A DNA stretch of 64,000 bases from Heteronotia binoei. Lineage: Eukaryota. Positions 37 to 25,035 of the stretch are shown piece after piece; position 1 is the stretch's first letter; each line of letters opens with the position of its first letter. Location of the stretch: positions 51,460,001 to 51,524,000 of the forward strand of contig NC_083224.1 in NCBI RefSeq assembly GCF_032191835.1, in the 5' to 3' direction. The notes beneath the pieces were generated by a model that was given only the letters and a program-made list of their open reading frames with translations, had not been told where the DNA came from and searched no databases. The position numbers were made by a program, and so were the translations under genes.

Positions 37-415
37 TTGCCCCCCCAGTCGGAAGAACGAGACAACACGGTGTGTGGGTTTAAAACAGGGCAACTTTATT
101 AAAACCAACAGCATGGGGCAACCTAACTGACCGGACCGGCGAAGGGTACTCCACAACCCTTCCCGGACCCGGTGGGCGAACCACCCCGCCCCCAGCAGCA
201 GCCGAAAGACTAGCTGCTGCCAGGCCGGCCTGGTCGGGTGTAACCTCCAAATGTCGCAGCCGCCCTTACCGGAACGGCTCGCTAAACGAGGTAACCCTGT
301 GGCGAGAAGGACAGCAGAGGGCCGTTTTAACCCAGCTGCCGTCCATCATCCGCCACTTCCCTTACGGGGAAAACCACGGGTGGTCACCAAAACAAACCTG
401 CCTTCAAATCCCGCC
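37..415 (-). repeat. Split direct repeat B2 (379 bp), partner B1 at 755-1133
   Basis: Exact match at offset 718 from ttgcccccccagtc to aaatcccgcc. Mismatches occur at 36/754 and 416/1134. Confidence 0.95.
95..100 (-). terminator. AATAAA polyadenylation signal in B2 (duplicated in B1 at 813-818)
   Basis: Sense AATAAA followed by the GU-rich stretch gtgttgtctcgttctt. The signal is retained in both solo copies (51474-51479, 49036-49041). Confidence 0.7.
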
Positions 416-456
416 CAAATAAAGTTACCTAACGAGAAGCCCAGCCTCAAGACAAC

Positions 457-557
457 AGTACAAGGTAGGCGAAAAACATCCCAACTCAGGCCAATCAGAT
501 GGGATGAAAAAATTCCTACCTGGCCCCGAAACAACGGCGACCGGAGGAGCCTGTACT
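457..557 (-). ncRNA. Structured cis-RNA element in the A2-B2 spacer, ENE-like (U-rich internal loop between two stems)
   Basis: Sense AGUACA...AGGUAGG-AAUUUUUU-CAUCCCA-loop-UGGGAUG-UUUUUCG-CCUACCU-UGUACU. The same 101-nt span is present at 48536-48636 and 51844-51944 with compensatory changes. Confidence 0.7.
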
Positions 558-578
558 ATTGCAGGGTGGGAGGGAGGG

Positions 579-756
579 CCGAAAACGGCCAGCGAAGTGC
601 GTGGCCGGGGGCGCGGTCTGGCTAAAAAGCCCCATAACCACGCCCCCAAAGCTTCCCCGGATGACGGAGCCGTTTGCCTCGCTCCATCCGGGGAGGCAAA
701 CTCGGCCCCCGCCCTAAAGCCAGCTGAAGCAGGCACGGGCGGGAAGGGGCCGGATT
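579..756 (-). repeat. Split direct repeat A2 (178 bp), partner A1 at 6187-6364
   Basis: Exact match at offset 5608 from ccgaaaacggcc to ggggccggatt. Confidence 0.95.
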
Positions 757-1133
757 GCCCCCCCAGTCGGAAGAACGAGACAACACGGTGTGTGGGTTTA
801 AAACAGGGCAACTTTATTAAAACCAACAGCATGGGGCAACCTAACTGACCGGACCGGCGAAGGGTACTCCACAACCCTTCCCGGACCCGGTGGGCGAACC
901 ACCCCGCCCCCAGCAGCAGCCGAAAGACTAGCTGCTGCCAGGCCGGCCTGGTCGGGTGTAACCTCCAAATGTCGCAGCCGCCCTTACCGGAACGGCTCGC
1001 TAAACGAGGTAACCCTGTGGCGAGAAGGACAGCAGAGGGCCGTTTTAACCCAGCTGCCGTCCATCATCCGCCACTTCCCTTACGGGGAAAACCACGGGTG
1101 GTCACCAAAACAAACCTGCCTTCAAATCCCGCC
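755..1133 (-). repeat. Split direct repeat B1 (379 bp)
   Basis: Identical to 37-415. The ORF track gives the same 55-aa translation at 251 and 969. Confidence 0.95.
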
Positions 1134-1154
1134 ACCACAATGCCAAGCCTCAGC

Positions 1155-1756
1155 TTAGGCACTTGTGCCCACCGGCAGGCCTAAAGCCAGCCGAAGCCCC
1201 AGCTGTAGGTCCCGAAGAAAGGCCCTGTTGCCAGCCGCGGACAGGTGGACGCCATCTGGTCGATACAGGTCCGCCATATAAGACCTAATGCCCGGGTGGG
1301 GAAGGTAAATACCAAGGCCCCCGGCGAGCGCCCTCCGCATCGCCCTGTTAGCCTTGCGCCGAGCCCTCTCGACGCCGGCCGGGTTCAAAGCCGACCTCCA
1401 CACCCGCCGTGGGAGGATGGCGGACCACACTATCAACACCTCGGGCCACCTGCTCCGCACCACCTGGAGGTCCTCGATCGCCTGGTGAGACAGGGCCCTC
1501 CCCTGCACCAGGCCCAGATCGTTGCCCCCAAGGTGAATCACCAGTATCTGAGGCGGGAGACCTTCCCCCTCCCGGAACAAAAGCGGCAAGAGGCCGTCCC
1601 AACGTAGGCCACGGCGCCCCTGCCATTCCAACACTGCCCGCTCGCTGAGGCCCAACTGAGAACCAAAGGGGGACCGCCGAGCAAAATGGGCAGCCCAGAA
1701 TATCATGCTGTGGCCGGCGATCAAGATCCTTGTCCTCTCGCCGCTCGCCACAGCAC
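1155..1756 (-). CDS. SGNH/GDSL-type hydrolase (esterase) ORF of the Ngaro element; no initiating ATG, probably a spliced exon
   Basis: Blocks GHS (I), HLGGND (III) and DGVH (V) are present. The ORF-track start at 1751 is GTG. Branch point, polypyrimidine tract and CAG end at 1757. Confidence 0.85.
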
Positions 1757-1799
1757 CTGAAACAAGAAAGGTAACAATGTGAGAAAAACAACCAACCCC

Positions 1800-2681
1800 T
1801 CAATGGGTAATGGGGCGAACATAGCCCTTGTAAGCCGTGGACCTCCACCGTCCCACCTTCTGAATCGCGGGCCCCGGGTAGCCCATGGCTGCTGCCGTTG
1901 ATGCCGCCCCAATGCGGAAGGAATGAGTCCCAAAATGGACTCCCCCGAGGCCAAGCCTATCCAGGGCCCGGCTGGTTATAGACCAAAACTGAAATTTGGT
2001 CAATGGGGACCCATCCTCGTGCCGAAATAGAGGCCCCGCATCATCGCCCCGAACAGCGATATAATCCCTGAAGGCCGCCACCGGGCAGATATCCGTGTCA
2101 TCACACCCACCCAGTGAGATGCTCGTACCACGCTGTTTTTGATCCGTCTTTGACCTGCGTATTGAAATGACCACACAGTCAGCCTGCATTTTTACGTCAC
2201 CCAACTGCAGGGCCCGCTGAGAGCGGTCCTGCCGGGAGCTGACCACCAGCTCGCTCACTCTGAGCGCCCCAAAAAATGCCATCATGGACGCTGCCTGAAA
2301 AAGGGTCGCCTCAAAATTGGAAAAACAAACTGCAGGCCAGGCTGACCTGAGGCCCTTCAAAACCGTAGGAGAAAAGGGTTGCCTGTTGTCGGGTCGCGGA
2401 CCTTGCTCCCGCGCCCAACCCTCCAGCATTTTCCTCAATCTAAAATCATCGGTGCGATCGGGTAAACCCCTACTTTTTGCATGAAAAGCGAGGGCGGCCA
2501 ACTTGGCCCTGATCGTTTTAACAACAAGACCCTTACCTCTCAAGTGAACACAAAACTGCATGAGGTGGGCCACCGGGACCGGCCACCGGTTGGCCAACCC
2601 CACCAGCTCCCTAAAGGACCGGAACTGGTGTACCGAAAGATCGTAGGCCTTCCGGGTAGAAGGCGCCAGTGCCAGCATCAT
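1800..2681 (-). CDS. Tyrosine recombinase (YR)
   Basis: Catalytic motifs ALRVSEL (R), RRSKTDQ (K), HSFRIGAA (HxxR) and GRWRSTAYKGY (W, Y). The N-terminal APSTRKAY helix domain is present. The first in-frame ATG, at 2681, overlaps the RT stop codon. Confidence 0.93.
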   Translation of the reverse strand: MMLALAPSTRKAYDLSVHQFRSFRELVGLANRWPVPVAHLMQFCVHLRGKGLVVKTIRAKLAALAFHAKSRGLPDRTDDFRLRKMLEGWAREQGPRPDNRQPFSPTVLKGLRSAWPAVCFSNFEATLFQAASMMAFFGALRVSELVVSSRQDRSQRALQLGDVKMQADCVVISIRRSKTDQKQRGTSISLGGCDDTDICPVAAFRDYIAVRGDDAGPLFRHEDGSPLTKFQFWSITSRALDRLGLGGVHFGTHSFRIGAASTAAAMGYPGPAIQKVGRWRSTAYKGYVRPITH

Positions 2682-4531
2682 TGCTCTGTTGGCCTCGAGT
2701 CTCCAAGCCGCCACATCTCTGGGGGCATCCGAGCCGGCAGGAGATCGGCCTCTGGTGCAAGAAGGCGGAAGCGCTCCATCTGCCGACGAGACAGAGCATC
2801 CGCCACCCCATTGCAAACTCCGGGCACATGCTTAGCACAAAACAAAACATTTAACCTTAAACAGCTTAACACAAAGGCCCTCACAAGGCGCATAACCGGG
2901 ACTGACTTGGAAGACAACGTGTTGATCACGTGTACCACAGCTAAATTGTCACACCAGAAGTGGACCACCCGGTTTGCCAAAGCAGGGCCCCATAACCTAA
3001 TTGCAACTACTATAGGAAAAAATTCCAAGAAAGTTAAATTCCTGCAGAGGCCGCTAGCAAGCCATTCGGTGGGCCACACCTCCGCACACCAGTGGCCCCG
3101 AAAGTAAACACCGAAGCCGACCGCCCCGGAGGCATCGGATGTGACTTGGAGTTCAGCTTCCAGTTTCAACTCCTCGCGCCAAAAGGACACCCCGTTGAAA
3201 TTGGCCAGAAAACGCTCCCAGACCTGCAAGTCAAGCCGCATGCCCTGAGTAACCCTCACTCGATGGTGGGGGCGGCGCAAACCCGACATAGCGTCGCAAA
3301 GGCGCCGCAAAAATGCTCTCCCCGGGGCGACCACCTTGCAGGCGAAGTTCAAGTGGCCCACAAGAGTCTGGAGCTCAAGGAGAGACAGCTTACGTTGGCC
3401 CTTGGCGGCGGCCAACATCTGCTTCAGCCTATTAATTTTGTCAGCAGGTAACCTGGAAGCCTGATCAACCGAATCCAACTCAATGCCCAAGAAGGTTAAT
3501 CTGGTCACCGGGCCTTCGGTCTTTTCAGGGGCAAGCGGTAGACCCAGCTCAGCCGCCAAGCCCTGGAAGGACTGGAGCAAGTGGGCGCATTGGCCCGTCC
3601 CTTGGCGGCCTACAAACAAAAAATCGTCCAAATAATGGACCGTAGAGGCGGAACCGGATCGTGCTCGCAAGGCCCATTCAATGAAAGTGCTAAAACGCTC
3701 AAAAGCTGAGCAGGAGATAGAACATCCCATTGGCAGGGCTCGATCCATATAAAACTTCCCCTCAAAGGTGAAACCCAGGAGCTCGAAGTCTTGCGGGTGT
3801 ACCGGCAAAAGGCGAAATGCTGACTTAATGTCGCATTTCGCCATTTCGGCCCCCGGGCCACAACTTCGCACGATCGCGACAGCCTGATCAAATGAGGTGT
3901 ATCTCACTGAACAGAGGGATTCAGGTATGGCGTCATTAACCGAGCCGCCCTTAGGATAGGAGAGGTGGTGAATCAACCGAAACTCCCCAGGTGCCTTCTT
4001 AGGCACTACCCCCAACGGGGATACCCTCAAATTGGGAACTGGGGGGCTGTCGAAAGGGCCTAAAACACGGCCCTCCTTGCATTCCTTCAGGATCTTTTCA
4101 CGAACCACCGTTTCCATACCTTTGACCGACTGCAAGTTCCTGGCCATACAGGGGCCCCTGGGACCCTGAAAAGGGATGCGGAAACCATAACAAAACCCAT
4201 CTAACAAATAAACTCGGTCGCGGGAGCGCGGGTAACCAACTAACAACTTCTTAAGGACCGTCACCTTGATGGGGCTGGGGCCCTTTTCCAACTGCTTGGG
4301 AGCTGCTATTACTCCCGGTCCGCTTGGCGCCGGCTCGGGGCTTTGTTTTGTTACATGAGACCAGGGAATGGGACCCGCCACACAGGGGGCACTCGTGCCT
4401 GTATTTACACGGCTTCCTGTTACAACCCCCTTGGGACGAGAAATCCCAACACACCAGCCGGGGTTGAACCGGCTGCCCCGCCGACGCGCGGGTACCAGAT
4501 GCGGATACATGCCTGTTAACGAGGTGGCCAC
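2678..4531 (-). CDS. Reverse transcriptase / RNase H
   Basis: RT motifs KCDIKSAFRLLP, LPMGCSISC and YLDDF. RNase H motifs TSDASG, LEFFPI, CDNLAVV and NGVADALSR. The frame opens at 4621, the first ATG is at 4510, and it lies +1 relative to gag. Confidence 0.95.
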   Translation of the reverse strand: MATSLTGMYPHLVPARRRGSRFNPGWCVGISRPKGVVTGSRVNTGTSAPCVAGPIPWSHVTKQSPEPAPSGPGVIAAPKQLEKGPSPIKVTVLKKLLVGYPRSRDRVYLLDGFCYGFRIPFQGPRGPCMARNLQSVKGMETVVREKILKECKEGRVLGPFDSPPVPNLRVSPLGVVPKKAPGEFRLIHHLSYPKGGSVNDAIPESLCSVRYTSFDQAVAIVRSCGPGAEMAKCDIKSAFRLLPVHPQDFELLGFTFEGKFYMDRALPMGCSISCSAFERFSTFIEWALRARSGSASTVHYLDDFLFVGRQGTGQCAHLLQSFQGLAAELGLPLAPEKTEGPVTRLTFLGIELDSVDQASRLPADKINRLKQMLAAAKGQRKLSLLELQTLVGHLNFACKVVAPGRAFLRRLCDAMSGLRRPHHRVRVTQGMRLDLQVWERFLANFNGVSFWREELKLEAELQVTSDASGAVGFGVYFRGHWCAEVWPTEWLASGLCRNLTFLEFFPIVVAIRLWGPALANRVVHFWCDNLAVVHVINTLSSKSVPVMRLVRAFVLSCLRLNVLFCAKHVPGVCNGVADALSRRQMERFRLLAPEADLLPARMPPEMWRLGDSRPTEQ

Positions 4532-5768
4532 TATCAGACCTATCCCCAGAGTTGGGCTTGGCCGGTGACATAAGCTGGAGCCACAACTGCTGGTGAATGT
4601 GGTCCCATGGGATGGTAGGGTTCAATGCCGCCCTCATCCGGAACTCCTCGTCATACTGCAACCATGCAGCGCCGGAGAAGTCCGTGTAGGCCTTAAAAAT
4701 TATATCCAGGTATTGAAAAAGAGGTGCGGCCCGTAAAGGCTGCGCCCGCGCGACAACCCCGGCATAGATTAAGAAACCGGGCAACCAATTGGACCAGTTA
4801 CGCTCAACCTTGCGGCGTTTGATCCTCTCTTTGTCCTTCTCGTCTAAATCTTCTTTTTCTTTCTTTTCTAACTCCCGATAGAGAAGGGCAAAGACATCAA
4901 CGTATTCACCCCGGAGAATTTTTTCCCGGGTGGCCGGCGTGAGGTGATCACCCAAAGGCATAGCGGTGTCACCAAAAGGGCGGCAATGGAAGGGGACTGA
5001 TCCCAACAAATTTGGTGGGCAGCCCCACCCCCCCCACTGAGGAACCGTCCAACCCGGTGCAGGGATGCTACCCCATTGAAAACCCCACGGCAAGGAACCC
5101 GAGGGGGGCGGTTGCCCACCGGAACCAAGAGGGGCTGAAGGAGTAGGCGTAGACCCTGCTCCGAGTGGAGGGGTCCAAGGCAAAATCTGTCCCTGACCCG
5201 AAGAGCCAGCTGCAGCTGCTGCGTTGAAAGCAAACATAGGACCAACAGAAGACCCCTGGCCAAGGTTGGCCAGAGGGAGTGCCGGGCTTGTCGGACCCCA
5301 GGGGTTCAAACCCCCCCACGGCCAAGAGCCAGGAACGCACGGGAGGCCTTGCTTACCGTCTGGCACCACACCTGCAGGAGCCCCAGCCGGGACGGCGCCA
5401 CCAACATCCTCCGGGCGAGCAGGCACTTCTGGATGATTACCTTCATCTGCATCCGAACTGTCGTCCTGAGGTTCTGGTCCCGCTCCACCTGATGGCCCAG
5501 GCAGGGCCGCCATCTCCTGCAAAGATGAGAGACGAGCCAGGACCTCCTGCTCGAAGGCCCTGGTGGACGTCCTAGCTGCCTTACGGCCCCGCCCAGGGAG
5601 GGATTGCACATCCACTCCATGGTGCCTTTCTAAAGCCTCAAGGCTGGCTACAATAGCCTGCCTAGTTTGGGCCTCCTGTTCAACTCCAGGGGGCCCACTG
5701 GGAATGGGCCTTTTCTGGCCAGCCTTTAAGGGCTGCTTGCCCTTAGATTTCCCTTGCCCCTTAGGCAT
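4251..5768 (-). CDS. Gag-like ORF1 (505 aa from MPKGQGK)
   Basis: Pro/Gly-rich middle and a helical YxxxFRxRAA core. C-terminal Cys/His cluster CWDF...CNRKPCKYRHECPLCGGSH, typical of DIRS/Ngaro Gag. The ORF-track extension to 6086 has no ATG. Confidence 0.85.
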   Translation of the reverse strand: MPKGQGKSKGKQPLKAGQKRPIPSGPPGVEQEAQTRQAIVASLEALERHHGVDVQSLPGRGRKAARTSTRAFEQEVLARLSSLQEMAALPGPSGGAGPEPQDDSSDADEGNHPEVPARPEDVGGAVPAGAPAGVVPDGKQGLPCVPGSWPWGGLNPWGPTSPALPLANLGQGSSVGPMFAFNAAAAAGSSGQGQILPWTPPLGAGSTPTPSAPLGSGGQPPPSGSLPWGFQWGSIPAPGWTVPQWGGWGCPPNLLGSVPFHCRPFGDTAMPLGDHLTPATREKILRGEYVDVFALLYRELEKKEKEDLDEKDKERIKRRKVERNWSNWLPGFLIYAGVVARAQPLRAAPLFQYLDIIFKAYTDFSGAAWLQYDEEFRMRAALNPTIPWDHIHQQLWLQLMSPAKPNSGDRSDSGHLVNRHVSASGTRASAGQPVQPRLVCWDFSSQGGCNRKPCKYRHECPLCGGSHSLVSCNKTKPRAGAKRTGSNSSSQAVGKGPQPHQGDGP

Positions 5769-6186
5769 AATGATTCCCAGGCACTGGCAAAAAGCCTCTA
5801 GCAGGACCCAGCAGCACCTGTGTACCAGGCTGATAATTGTAGAGAGGAAGAGAAACAAGCAACCCCGACCACCAGCCCCCAGAGGGAAGAGTCCTAGGCT
5901 CCAATTACACCCAAAACTCCCTGGAATGCAAGCTATAACGGCAGCAGACCAAAAACAGGAAGGGGTGGGTGGGTGGGGGAAAAACGAAACCTGGCGCGGC
6001 CGATAGCCGCGCGTGCGAAGCCCGCCCGTCAGCTGTTCAGCGGCGAAACGGGTCCCAATTGCGGCGAAGAAAAAAGCGGCCGTCACAGGGAAGCCCTCGT
6101 CGACTGCAGCGGCTCACACGCCAACCCGACGACGCTGCAAGGCCCAGCCGCGCCCCGACGGAGGTAAGCCGAACGCTGCTTCCCAC

Positions 6187-6364
6187 CCGAAAACGGCCAG
6201 CGAAGTGCGTGGCCGGGGGCGCGGTCTGGCTAAAAAGCCCCATAACCACGCCCCCAAAGCTTCCCCGGATGACGGAGCCGTTTGCCTCGCTCCATCCGGG
6301 GAGGCAAACTCGGCCCCCGCCCTAAAGCCAGCTGAAGCAGGCACGGGCGGGAAGGGGCCGGATT
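6187..6364 (-). promoter_or_regulatory. Split direct repeat A1; probable element promoter
   Basis: Identical to 579-756. The sense strand has GC/GT boxes (gggcggggg, gggggcgtgg) followed by a T/A patch (ctttttag; ttttataag in the 52 kb copy, ctatatc in the 48 kb copy). The promoter role is inferred. Confidence 0.6.
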
Positions 6365-12219: not shown

Positions 12220-12746
12220 TGTCACGTTCTCAGGGTGCAGGCAGGCAGGAGTTCAAACCCAGTCCAAGGTCAAAGTCCAGGAAGTTAAGCAGGAGCCAAG
12301 TCACCAATGCAGAATCACAAACCGGAATCAAAAGTCAATATCCAAAAGGTCAGAGTGCCAAGGAAATCAAGCAGGTCAGGATCAGGAAGGAGCGTGGATG
12401 CAAGCCAGAGAATAGATTTGTTGCTTCCACAAGGTTACCAGGTCCTAGGTGGGAGCTATAGGGGAGTCTCAATCAGCCTGCTCCCTGGGTGGGAGTGACT
12501 CTGCTAGAACTCAGGGCTGAGAGATCTGAAGCATCATGTCTTCGCTCTGAAAGTTCTTTCCGGAGCTTGCTTCAAACTCTTGAGATGGGAGGAGGAGAGC
12601 TTGGAGGAGATTGATCGTCAGCAACTGACACTGGTGACTGGAGAGTGATTGATGGCCCAGTTGCTGTTTGTTCAGCTGAGGAACTGGCTGGCAACTCTTC
12701 CAGTTCTGTTAACCCTTCCAGCTCCTCCTCATCAGGGCTCATAACA
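12220..12746 (-). mobile_element. 3' LTR of a Ty3/Gypsy element (527 bp)
   Basis: Sense TGTTATGAG...GTGACA (TG..CA), directly after the polypurine tract at about 12750-12775. Confidence 0.8.
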
Positions 12747-14650
12747 CTATCCCCCCCGCAGGACCGCCCCCCCCCAGACAAGCCAGGCCGGTCAGGGTAG
12801 ACCATGAGGAACTGCTGCACAAGGTCAGGGGCGTGTAGGTTGTCCGTGGGTTTCCATGAACGGTTCTCGGGGCCATAGCCTTCCCAGTCCACGAGGTACT
12901 GGAGGTCCCCGTGGTGGATTTGGGAGTCCAGGGGCTGGTGGACCTTGACCAGGACAGGAGGCGGCGGCACTGGAGGTGGCAGTTGGATGGGATCCGGTGG
13001 TGTAGCAGGAACAAGGAGGGACTGGTGGAAGACTGGGTGGATGCGGAGGGTAGCCAGCAGATGTAGCCAGAAAGCAACGGGGTTGATTTGGTCTGTGTTC
13101 AGGTAAGGCCCCGCGAAGCGAGGGTCCAGCTTGCGAGACTGGCCAGGCCAACGCAGGTAATGGGTGGAGAGCCAGATGTAGTCCCTGGGCTTCAGTGGGG
13201 GCCCCACCTGTTGCTTTTGGACAGTGGCTATCTTGTAGGTCTCTTTAGCCTGTTGGAGTTGCTCTCGGAGCAAGTCCTGGAGAGCCCGAATTTCCTGCAG
13301 GTGCGCATCAGCAGCAGGGACTGCTGTGGGGGGCAGGACTGCGGGGAAGAAGTGAGGGTGGTACCCATAGGTGGCAGCAAATGGGATCTGTTGCTGGATG
13401 CATGTACGGCGTTGTTGTAGGCAAACTTGGCCAGGGGTAGCAAGGCGGCCCAGTCATCCTGCTGGTAGCTGGTGTAACAATGCAGGTATTGTGCTAGCGT
13501 GGCGTTGGCGTTGGTGCGTTCGGTCTGCCCATCTGTTTGGGGATGGTACACTGAGGACAAATGCACCTTGGTGCCAAAGCTGGAGTGCAGGGCTTGCCAG
13601 AATCAGGAGGTGAACTGGGGACCTTGGTCTGAGATCAAGTGTGCCGGGAGCCCATACAGGCAAAAGGTATGCTGGAGATAGAGCTGGGCTGTTTCAGGAA
13701 ATGGGAAACGGGGGTGGCTTGGAACATGGAACAAGTGAGCCATCTTGGTGAAGAGATCCACCATCACCAAGATGCAAGTGTGCCTCTTGGACCTGGGGAG
13801 CTCGGTGATAAAGTTCAGGGAGATGATGTCTTAGGGTCCTGCAGGCGTGGGATGGGGATGCAAAAACCCTGGGGGCTTGGCCAGTACATCCTTGGCCCAC
13901 CGGCAGACCTCACAGGAACCAACATAACGGGCCACATTGGCACGGACACAAGGCCACCAGAACTCCTGCATGAGCAGGGTGGCTGAAGTGCCCCGCTGGA
14001 GGGGAGTCATTGTCAAGCATGCGGGTTCAATGACGAGTCGAAGTTGATACAAAGACTACGTTTATTGATAGACCGATACTTTGGTGTAACAGGTTCTTGA
14101 GAGTAATGCTGCCAATACATTGATACAATACTTTTAAGGCTTACTTCAAAAGGATTCCAAGGGATGGGGGTGAGGGGTAGCACTCACACATAAACTATCA
14201 TAAATGTCTACGTTCCCATAGTGTTATCAGGACTTCGTCCTTGCTTTCCCCAGATGTCTCGTACTCCCTTACAGGAATGTATGGGAAGGTGCTGATTACT
14301 TGGTTTCAGTTGTCACTACTTCTAATTTTAAGCCATAAAGCAAGATGGGAGGAAGGGAAAGAATAACAAGCTAACAAAGTCGGATCCTCCATGATACTTC
14401 ACAGACCAGGTTTAGGCAGGACCCTATAACAATCAATTATCAATGGAATTTCACCATGCTTGACAGTCATGGGTCAGATGGAGCACGTCAGCCTGGAGGG
14501 GTCCTGGAGGCATGTGTAGGCACCCATGGTGCAGGAGGAGACCTTGGCAGGTAGAGAGGTCCCCCGCCGGGCCATCTTGCACTTCCAGGAGGCATTGCTG
14601 AGCCCAGGGGTCTTGGGTCTGACTGACCTGGATGTCTGTTGTCTTTCCCT
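12747..14650 (-). pseudogene. Ty3/Gypsy (chromoviral) integrase remnant: HHCC zinc finger, core, GPY/F module and chromodomain
   Basis: LHLTHD...WWPCVRANVARYVGSCEVC; [16 protein letters not shown]; FAGPY...IHPVFHQSLL; QYLVDWEGYGPENRSW. Frameshifted and 5'-truncated. Confidence 0.9.
14011..14465 (-). mobile_element. Solo LTR (455 bp) inserted in the Gypsy integrase zinc finger
   Basis: Perfect 11-bp terminal inverted repeat tgtcaagcatg / catgcttgaca. 5-bp TSD gtcat. Minus-strand AATAAA near 14062. Confidence 0.9.
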
Positions 14651-23745: not shown

Positions 23746-25035
23746 AGCCCAATATGGTGTAGTGGTGAAGAGCAACAGACTCTAAACTGGAGACCCAGAT
23801 TTGCTTCCCTACTCCTCCACATGAAGCCTGCTGAGTGACTTTGGGCTCTCTCAGAACTGGCTTAGTAATAGGAAGCAGAGAGTCAGTATAAATGGGCAGT
23901 CTTCGCAGTGGAGGACGGTAAGCAGTGGGGTGCCGCAGGGCTCGGTACTGGGTCCCATGCTCTTTAACTTGTTCATAAATGATTTAGAGTTGGGAGTGAG
24001 CAGTGAAGTGGCCAAGTTTGCGGATGACACTAAATTGTTCAGGGTGGTGAGAACCAGAGAGGATTGTGAGGAACTCCAAAGGGATCTGTTGAGGCTGGGT
24101 GAGTGGGCGTCAACGTGGCAGATGCGGTTCAATGTGGCCAAGTGCAAAGTAATGCACATTGGGGCCAAGAATCCCAGCTACAAATACAAGTTGATGGGGT
24201 GTGAACTGGCAGAGACTGACCAAAAGAGAGATCTTGAGGTCGTGGTAGATAACTCACTGAAAATGTCAAGACAGTGTGCGTCTGCAATAAAAAAGGCCAA
24301 CGCCATGCTGGGAATTATTAGGAAGGGAAATGAAAACAAATCAGCCAGTATCATAATGCCCCTGTATAAATCGATGGTGCGGTCTCATTTGGAGTACTGT
24401 GTGCAGTTCTGGTCGCCGCACCTCAAAAAGGATATTATAGCATTGGAGAAAGTCCAGAGAAGGGCAACTAGAATGATTAAAGGGCTGGAGCACTTTCCCT
24501 ATGAAGAAAGGTTGAAACGCTTGGGACTCTTTAGCTTGGAGAAACGTCGACTGCGGGGTGACATGATAGAGGTTTACAAGATAATGCATGGGATGGAGAA
24601 AGTAGAGAAAGAAGTACTTTTCTCCCTTTCTCACAATACAAGAACTCGTGGGCATTCGATGAAATTGCTGAGCAGAAAGGTTAAAACGGATAAAAGGAAG
24701 TACTTCTTCACCCAAAGGGTGATTAACATGTGGAATTCACTGCCACAGGAGGTGGTGGCGGCCACAAGTATAGCCACCTTCAAGAGGGGTTTAGATAAAA
24801 ATATGGAGCACAGGTCCATTAGTGGCTATTAGCCACAGTGTATGTGTGTATATAAAATTTTTTGCCACTGTGTGACACAGAGTGTTGGACTTGATGGGCC
24901 GTTGGCCTGATCCAACATGGCTTCTCTTATGTTCTTATGTTCTAGAACTCTTTCAGCCCCTCCTCCCTCACAAGGTTGTGGAGAGAGGAAGGGAAGGATA
25001 TTGTAAGCCAATCTGAGACTCCTTCGGATAAATGC
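23746..25035 (+). mobile_element. Squam3-type SINE split by a CR1 insertion
   Basis: The head at 23746-23858 resumes at 24944 with agaactctttcagcccc...gtaagccaatctgagactcc. Confidence 0.7.
23859..24943 (+). mobile_element. Young 5'-truncated CR1 LINE (ORF2 RT C-terminus open from 23861 to 24832)
   Basis: GVPQGSVLGP, KFADDTKL, HLEYCVQFWSPHL, LEKRRLRGDMI. (TTATGTTC)n tail. 6-bp TSD agaact. Confidence 0.95.

Follow-up and report, generated by a model that had tools for sequence, protein, structure and literature searches.

A Ngaro retrotransposon of Heteronotia binoei probably joins one gag splice donor to either an esterase or a recombinase exon

How the start-less and overlapping downstream open reading frames (ORFs) of tyrosine recombinase (YR) retrotransposons are expressed is left unexplained in the literature that we searched. 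Vertebrate Ngaro-like elements such as Xenopus DIRS-53_XT have A1...B1-A2-B2 repeats, gag, reverse transcriptase/RNase H (RT/RNase H) and YR genes, and a fourth ORF encoding an SGNH hydrolase, which the available part of the published account describes as being without proven function (PMC9210276). The strings 'splic' and 'intron' occur nowhere in that part of the text. The question arises in a 64,000-nucleotide stretch of Heteronotia binoei DNA (NC_083224.1, positions 51,460,001 to 51,524,000; the window), where the SGNH frame of such an element has no in-frame ATG 5′ of its GHS motif (1715-1707), as an earlier note on this DNA had stated, and the first methionine comes directly after the catalytic serine (1706).

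The element is an intact, young Ngaro retrotransposon on the minus strand of the window (37..6364), and all features given below lie on that strand. It has the A1 ... B1-A2-B2 split direct repeats of Ngaro elements (order DIRS) and AA at both flanks, and its ends lack poly(A) and a long target duplication. Repeats A1 (6187..6364) and A2 (579..756) are 178 nt long and 100% identical; B1 (755..1054) and B2 (37..336) are 100% identical over at least 300 nt and contain AATAAA at 818 and 100, respectively. Among the scored matches, this genome holds at least four near-identical copies, that in the window included. The gag ORF (4251..5768, 505 aa, ATG at 5768) ends in a CCCH-type finger with a weak Pfam match below the cut-off, and is accompanied by an RT/RNase H frame (2678..4621, 647 aa from stop to stop), a tyrosine recombinase exon (1800..2779, 325 codons plus stop) and an SGNH hydrolase exon (1155..1756). 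Matches to RVT_1 and Phage_integrase were above the Pfam cut-offs, and at E 0.1 Pfam gave no methyltransferase family for the pol frame. The SGNH hydrolase ORF after YR, a character of vertebrate Ngaro elements that we took from the available part of PMC9210276, has GHS, GGND and DGVH blocks and matches Lipase_GDSL_2 with 39.2 bits against a cut-off of 32.9. Repeats and gene set are those of the Xenopus DIRS-53_XT type, as far as the text at hand describes it (PMC9210276). Identity as an esterase-type ORF1p of a non-LTR element was rejected on account of the split direct repeats and the YR of the host element.

The earlier note proposed that the SGNH exon is reached by splicing from gag, and a script run on the window recovered both sites. 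Exon 1 would run from the gag ATG at 5768 to 5357, directly before GTAAGC; this coding part (5357..5768) comprises 412 nt, that is 137 codons plus one base (phase 1), and specifies a basic N-terminus, two helices and an acidic linker. The donor, ACG/GTAAGC (5351..5359), was located by the script and by comparison across copies. The YR stop (1802-1800) is followed by a spacer of 43 nt (1757..1799), slightly shorter than the 45 nt or so first noted, with a branch-point-like CTCAC (1783-1779, A at 1780), a pyrimidine tract and a CAG acceptor (...TTTCAG) ending at 1757, and no other AG lies between the stop and this acceptor. The exon beginning at 1756 has 602 nt, made up of two bases, 199 codons and a stop (1157-1155). 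Recomputation gave the same phase 1 at both junctions, the same 3600-nt intron and the same predicted Gag-SGNH protein of 337 aa (137+1+199), including 137 Gag residues. The acceptor tract is the most T-rich among nine acceptor-like sites within the window element. The donor is one of 13 GTRAG sites in the element and thus not distinctive alone, so that its case rests on comparisons across copies.

In the window copy the YR frame continues, across one TGA, into that of SGNH, as had been noted, and in a few copies a frame of about 560 aa is open through both, as read-through of the YR stop into a YR-SGNH fusion would require; however, the shared frame is not general, since the offset from YR stop to SGNH, over spacers of 37-91 nt, is 0, 1 or 2 in 39, 35 and 35 of 109 copies and close relatives of the window copy already differ in it, so that read-through is ruled out as a general route to SGNH and is scarcely credible as the explanation.

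Conservation in other Ngaro copies, which the earlier note had named as a check, was upheld on both sides of the intron. Of 30 copies, 29 retain the GT of the donor and all 30 the AG of the SGNH acceptor. A donor at phase 1 between gag codons 120 and 150 is present in 14 of 16 gag groups, which are 46-77% identical in nucleotide sequence, and a fifteenth group has it at codon 154, in the aligned place (15/16 in total); other stretches of 30 gag codons contain a phase-1 donor site in at most 3/16 groups. Gly-Lys at the donor is encoded as GGT-AAG in 13/13, and elsewhere in 8/54 (Fisher p 8e-9, with groups treated as independent). The best pyrimidine-rich AG before SGNH is at phase 1 in 126/131 copies, 12 to 33 codons before GHS. 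Several observations count against these sites: gag group L113 has an intact gag from which the donor is absent, the donor is not always the top-ranked gag site by a simple consensus score, an in-frame ATG lies somewhere 5′ of GHS in 54/131 copies, and invariance is also seen at 2 of the 48 other Gly codons in the window's family. A scan for the best-scoring donor across the whole of gag was not discriminating. As judged from substitution patterns, the SGNH exon and exon 1 are under purifying selection, with dN/dS of 0.18 and 0.09, respectively (26 copies each compared with the window); over gag 139-382 the values were 0.30 and 0.09, and selection on exon 1 does not distinguish its role in full Gag from any role in fusions. 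Among 109 open SGNH exons, the catalytic Ser, GxND and DxxH are kept in 102, 98 and 108.

In this genome the Gag-SGNH GT-AG intron is precisely missing, at the homologous junction, from four related copies, and a fifth, L332, lacks exactly the intron of a Gag-YR junction (below), with one base common to both ends. L254/L212 is 99.0% and 99.5% identical to the intron-bearing copy L236 on the two sides of the junction; it misses an intron of 1323 nt, keeps the A1 and B1-A2-B2 ends and has an open ORF of 336 aa. Removal is also exact at GT-AG in L255/L211, and in L142 and L191/L175, where only one base is common to the two ends. In a tree of SGNH exons, L142, L254 and L255 do not pair with one another; each is paired with copies that have the intron. 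Both Ngaro ends, with the usual AA-type joints, are preserved in two of the five intron-less copies, and a terminal poly(A) tail was found in 0/5. Such copies are probably spliced RNAs that were reverse-transcribed and put back into the genome by Ngaro proteins acting in trans. They might instead be deletions, at the DNA level or by template switching, at sites that the spliceosome does not use: many copies carry internal deletions (introns of 1318-1837 nt in L236-L251), and two of the junctions have three bases (G-GT) common to both ends. However, the five copies span three families and all break exactly at GT and AG, three of them with only one common base, the other deletions examined fall elsewhere, and codon choice at the sites follows the splice consensus, which makes deletion highly improbable. 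In the short-intron subfamily, the deletion itself does not have the look of a splice.

All five intron-less copies fall outside the window's subfamily (57-66% nucleotide identity in the SGNH exon), so that splicing of the window copy is argued by homology: it would splice as its relatives do. No intron-less copy of that subfamily was seen among the scored matches, which are small samples of the candidates (40 of 2464, 40 of 437, and 150 of 11466, with 40 of these 150 opened in full), nor in three further searches with 119-120 scored of about 17000 each.

The same donor likely feeds the recombinase too, a point absent from the earlier note. A second acceptor (...CGGCAG/ATGG, 2776..2800) lies in the RNase H tail (ADALSRxQ/M), with a phase-1 exon from 2779; its use would remove 2577 nt and give a predicted Gag-YR protein of 463 aa, the RT/RNase H frame lying inside both introns. 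Its AG is kept in 83/84 copies and 32/32 groups, while other pol Gln codons are CAG in 162/213; the Gln just before the acceptor is CAA in 20/22, and there is no other AG within 20 nt in 32/32, against 606/2040 background gaps. YR might alternatively start at its own methionine by stop-restart at the pol stop, with SGNH alone spliced and the second acceptor minor. In the window the pol TGA overlaps the ATG ATG of YR, in the window's subfamily a Met lies at YR codon 32-33, and the second acceptor has a weak pyrimidine tract and one intron-less copy behind it (L332, with a gag side that resembles the available intact relatives at only about 80%). But the first YR Met varies among codons 12, 21, 32 and 72 in 42 open copies (codon 72 in 3/42), and L332 as well as the database protein P0114, which is Gag-N plus the whole YR, join gag to YR at the acceptor. 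Stop-restart thus appears unlikely. An acceptor for pol near the gag end was sought by pattern, and none was common to the copies.

NCBI gene models of other lizards encode the Gag-SGNH fusion, unlabelled, and 32 of the 117 proteins retrieved fall into a pattern of Gag-N followed by SGNH. P0030 matches copy L141 of this genome at 100%, in two exons around a 3522-nt GT-AG phase-1 intron. A set of 'uncharacterized' lizard gene models can in this way be explained as transposon products. Intron-less copies, conservation and gene models strongly support, at the level of sequence, the spliced Gag-SGNH product that had been proposed. The best explanation, and a very probable one, is that one phase-1 gag donor is joined to either of two phase-1 acceptors: to that of SGNH, giving the 337-aa Gag-esterase, or to that of YR, giving the 463-aa Gag-recombinase. 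Full Gag and RT/RNase H would be made from the unspliced RNA, which would also be the template. The available text of PMC9210276 treats the ORFs as separate overlapping frames, whereas here SGNH and YR appear as downstream exons of a gag leader. We found no report of a Ngaro gag-SGNH or gag-YR splice in the literature searched; other reviews or Repbase reports may describe one.

The natural fusion L212 was modelled with an SGNH fold (pLDDT mostly 77-94) that matches SGNH/GDSL structures in Foldseek (best E 1.7e-7). The structure of ZfL2-1 ORF1p, an L2/CR1 protein (4C1B), was the sole match in a PDB sequence search (E 0.0041) and ranked 10 in Foldseek. Like Gag-SGNH, that protein has a helical and basic N-terminus, a poorly conserved linker and a C-terminal SGNH domain, although it comes from one unspliced ORF and has a coiled coil of five heptads whose structure is solved, according to the part of PMC3905857 consulted, and the Gag-SGNH plan would be built by splicing from Gag. 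The suggested convergence on L2 ORF1p is partial: the SGNH domain follows a basic N-terminus, a pair of short helices predicted at low confidence (residues 31-55 and 72-87, roughly 25 and 16 residues long, pLDDT 59-73) and a disordered, variable linker (90-143), and any coiled coil in the Gag part is hypothetical. A two-copy fold of L212 residues 25-95, the Gag helices, scored 0.08, and no weight is placed on it. The description 'env-like' fits the logic of a predicted spliced subgenomic message, but the donor is inside gag, and exon 1 and SGNH have no membrane-spanning or signal stretch of an env-type gene (highest 19-residue hydropathy 0.46 and 0.97).

A closer parallel than env is the SD'/P50 system of MLV, with a donor inside gag, a far downstream acceptor and a product made of N-terminal Gag and a distal domain; the SD' spliced RNA undergoes reverse transcription and integration and forms a retroelement of its own, SDARE. 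MLV is a retrovirus, and P50, an accessory protein, carries only a part of integrase, whereas the window element is a YR retrotransposon in which splicing appears to be needed for two whole enzyme domains (PMC10496198, in the part available). Bdelloid LTR retrotransposons have a GDSL/SGNH ORF3 at the env position, as the window element has its SGNH ORF, and their ORF3s are typically expressed from spliced messages; these are LTR elements, and the accessible portion of PMC5408684 describes ORF3 without coiled-coil and membrane segments and without fusion to Gag.

The 137-residue leader would supply a start codon to both enzymes. It may also be an address tag by which both co-assemble with Gag and the element RNA, so that recombinase and esterase would travel with the cDNA particle and the esterase could work on membrane lipids or attach to them, in line with the in vitro behaviour of the ZfL2-1 esterase; we give this double role about an even chance. 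That the leader lends only its start codon, or that splicing mainly lowers full-length RNA, is distinctly less probable, yet a serious contender. The linker 90-143 is disordered and variable, and the SGNH exon also sits behind unrelated host exons, as this reading would allow; against it, the leader always has 122-154 codons, enough for the basic tail and both helices, and donor-like sites at codons 5-11 in some groups are not conserved. Returning to the leader as start codon and address tag, a wider reading falls a little short of even chances: a one-donor, two-acceptor programme of splicing in vertebrate Ngaro, with conservation from frogs to lizards, a Gag leader that loads both enzymes into the particle, spliced RNAs mobilised as mini-elements, and capture of the esterase exon by hosts, as squamate TSG101 (a catalytically dead copy) appears to have done. 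The predicted Gag-SGNH and Gag-YR proteins are now defined for biochemical and retrotransposition assays, and the natural intron-less copies with open ORFs give fusion protein sequences directly.

Host capture would be possible because the esterase comes as a phase-1 terminal exon ready for use. An ORF from the DIRS order also serves as an alternative host exon in LAP2alpha of TMPO and in ZNF451; those captures are of DIRS1 gag in mammals, whereas that in TSG101 would be of a hydrolase exon (PMC4495291, part of the text). In the literature searched, no report was found of a squamate TSG101 isoform with SGNH, and the gene models point to an apparently unreported one. TSG101 is an ESCRT-I factor that binds retroviral Gag. 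Gene models place the SGNH exon behind exons of TSG101 and DUSP12, and in squamate TSG101 the exon is Ngaro-like, apparently captured, and has its catalytic His replaced.

The minus strand of the window carries a complete Ngaro-type element at 37-6364. Repeat A1 (6187-6364) is 100% identical to A2 (579-756) and B1 (755-1054) to B2 (37-336); gag occupies 5768-4251, and the RT/RNase H, tyrosine recombinase (YR) and SGNH hydrolase frames end at 2678, 1800 and 1155, respectively, all on the minus strand. Four copies among the matches scored in the Heteronotia binoei genome, counting the window copy, are approximately 100% identical, and the family is therefore young; the closest database proteins come from geckos and other lizards. 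The pol frame is +1 relative to gag, and in their overlap the run GG AAA GGG CCC CAG CCC C (4290-4260, minus strand), which is similar between groups, is a possible frameshift site.

An earlier note had proposed that SGNH is expressed by splicing from gag. Re-derived on the window sequence, the donor falls after 5357 and the acceptor before 1756, both in phase 1, in agreement with the note. The 43-nt spacer contains no AG, and no ATG precedes the catalytic GHS block in the SGNH frame of the window copy. The predicted product of 337 aa (137+1+199) is a sum of lengths, the gag and SGNH exons each having been translated on its own.

Donor, acceptor and phase proved to be kept in other Ngaro copies. 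Of the 30 closest copies, all have the acceptor AG and 29 have the donor GT, the window copy itself being counted in both sets. In a wider set, 141 long loci were examined; six without an SGNH match were dropped and four intron-less copies set aside, leaving 131, and the most pyrimidine-rich AG upstream of GHS was in phase 1 in 126 of these. A gag start was found in 89 loci, and 47 near-full gag sequences formed 16 groups at 80% identity, with 46-77% identity between groups. A phase-1 donor lay within codons 120-150 in 14 of the 16 groups, compared with at most 3 of 16 for any other stretch of codons. A fifteenth group has its donor at codon 154, which is the aligned place; in copy L113 the donor is lost. 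Column identity in the linker around the donor is about 33%, and Gly-Lys at the donor is encoded by GGT-AAG in 13/13 cases, against 8/54 elsewhere in gag. Inside the window's own family the donor Gly codon shows no synonymous change in 26 copies, a weak indication, as the same holds for 2 of 48 other Gly codons. Production of SGNH by read-through from YR was rejected because the frame offsets between them are spread 39/35/35 over 109 copies.

The fusion is also present among database proteins. NCBI models of 325-347 aa from Eublepharis, Rhineura, Anolis and Hemicordylus, labelled 'uncharacterized', join a Gag N-terminus to SGNH, a pattern matched by regular expression in 32 of 117 retrieved proteins (possibly including a few partial cases). 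Model P0030 matches copy L141 at 100% in two exons separated by a 3522-nt phase-1 GT-AG intron, and its tail runs out of the element.

Natural fusion proteins from the database were then used to search the H. binoei genome for single-piece matches. Protein searches yielded 1 of 123 and 2 of 119 matches scored, and a DNA search using the first single-piece match yielded one further among 40. In these copies (L142, L191, L254 and L255) the GT-AG intron is precisely absent at the homologous sites. The loss is defined against L192-L210 for L142 and L191, and against L296 for L255; L254 is 99.0% and 99.5% identical to L236 on the two sides of the junction. The intron ends of L142 and L191 have a single base in common, so microhomology does not explain these two copies. 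In a tree, L142, L254 and L255 each paired with intron-bearing copies (supports 0.86, 0.0 among near-identical copies, and 0.945, respectively), and the losses are therefore separate events. None of these copies, nor the copy L332 described below, belongs to the window's subfamily, to which they are 57-66% identical. The feature is real, and splicing from the gag donor to SGNH is very likely.

L254 descends from a young non-autonomous subfamily (L236-L243 and L251, e.g. C5:118767300-118773000), in which little of RT/RNase H and YR remains. Its members keep a gag open over 508-509 aa, except L240, whose gag frame is broken, together with the donor and the SGNH acceptor, and their SGNH exon is open as well.

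A second acceptor probably serves YR. Database protein P0114 carries a Gag leader of the same kind followed by a whole YR, and its use as a query brought up a single one-piece match among the 93 scored. In this copy, L332, the gag donor position is joined exactly to the YR acceptor, and the YR stop and SGNH acceptor are retained. The junction is CAG|ATGG within the RNase H motif ADALSRxQ, found in 84 of 135 loci (CAG 82, TAG 1, CAA 1). AG is present at this acceptor in 32/32 groups (CAG in 162/213 other Gln codons), the preceding Ser is TCT in 32/32 (99/423), and the 20 nt upstream are AG-free in 32/32 (606/2040 in the background). The window's YR exon starts at 2779, in phase 1, and is open for 325 codons, predicting a 463-aa fusion; the first Met of YR is not conserved. 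Against this stand a weak pyrimidine tract, intron-less support from one copy only, and Met codons that overlap the pol stop in the window. On balance, splicing from the gag donor to YR is highly probable. Base-exact intron-less copies for both introns are what the present analysis adds.

Three-exon Gag/YR-piece/SGNH forms also occur among the database models. In P0051, P0063, P0067 and P0083 a short YR exon lies between leader and SGNH. An exon of this kind, with the same spacing when counted by eye, distinguishes the two Xenopus proteins P0100 and P0102. At window position 2536 (minus strand), 243 nt inside the YR exon, there is a phase-1 donor-like G|GTAAGG, a site present in 7 of the 11 groups sampled.

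L254 and L142 retain A1 and B1-A2-B2. L255 and L332 stop after B1, without A2-B2; recombination, either between B1 and B2 or at the internal B1-A2 joint, may account for this. Where ends were located, the element's GGGCAA is followed by unique DNA without poly(A); the end motif of L191 was not located. We infer that Ngaro proteins acting in trans copied spliced RNA into DNA and inserted it, giving rise to the intron-less copies. For DIRS-1, RT is reported to act in trans (PMC7192593). The closest logic is that of the MLV SD′ RNA, which uses a donor within gag, encodes a Gag-N fusion and also occurs as integrated cDNA (PMC10496198). The splice is not described in the available portions of PMC9210276, PMC7192593, PMC6681497, PMC3783388, PMC8547959, PMC9341512 and PMC9940879, and a literature search, whose coverage excluded the founding 2004 paper and a 2015 review, found no report; priority is therefore uncertain.

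AlphaFold2, run on the natural fused ORF of L254 (L212) with 13 relatives, gave a confident SGNH domain, low-confidence helices at 31-55 and 72-87, and a disordered linker. In Foldseek this model matched SGNH hydrolases; the ZfL2-1 ORF1 esterase came at rank 10 and was also the sole PDB sequence match. The catalytic residues are kept across copies, and dN/dS for the SGNH exon is 0.18, from pairs against the window copy that are not independent. Of the first 25 residues of the leader, 7 are basic and none is acidic, and the leader contains no hydrophobic segment. The earlier note called the spliced mRNA env-like; the product is not Env. The suggested likeness to L2 ORF1p holds in part: Gag-SGNH is not an ORF1p, and may act like one because the ZfL2-1 esterase, located behind a coiled coil and basic motif, hydrolyses esters and binds liposomes (PMC3905857). 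The chance that the Gag leader tethers the enzyme to particles is about even.

SGNH exons also appear to have been captured by host genes. In nine gene models of squamate TSG101, 407-409 aa long (P0084, P0085, P0088-P0092, P0094 and P0096; geckos, lacertids, a varanid and a cobra), a Ngaro-like SGNH domain follows the UEV domain and the proline-rich region; literature searches found no report of this isoform. In H. binoei the exon is single-copy (C21:152569810-152570388, minus strand) and 92% identical to the Euleptes model. It lies within TSG101, in the intron that follows the exon encoding residues 194-215, whose donor is phase 1, and that precedes the next canonical one. Conservation of the exon is 80-90%, and a tandem acceptor fits one-residue isoform pairs. 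DGVL or NGVL replaces DGVH in 9/9 models and in H. binoei, so the catalytic His is gone. In a tree of sampled hydrolases the nine models form one clade adjoining three unnamed proteins; a Ngaro origin of the exon appears likely from this tree, which is without L2/CR1 esterases. Seen in one species only, a Gekko japonicus model (P0065) combines exons of DUSP12 with a Ngaro SGNH exon that again reads DGVL. In H. binoei a processed, frameshifted TSG101 pseudogene of the canonical isoform lies at C21:191.99 Mb.

Elsewhere in the window, Tf2-type SH3 and chromo domains in a 293-aa frame (12575-13453, minus strand) mark it as the integrase tail of a Gypsy element of chromovirus type, and a 335-aa RT frame (RVT_1; 23825-24829, plus strand) belongs to a LINE-like element.
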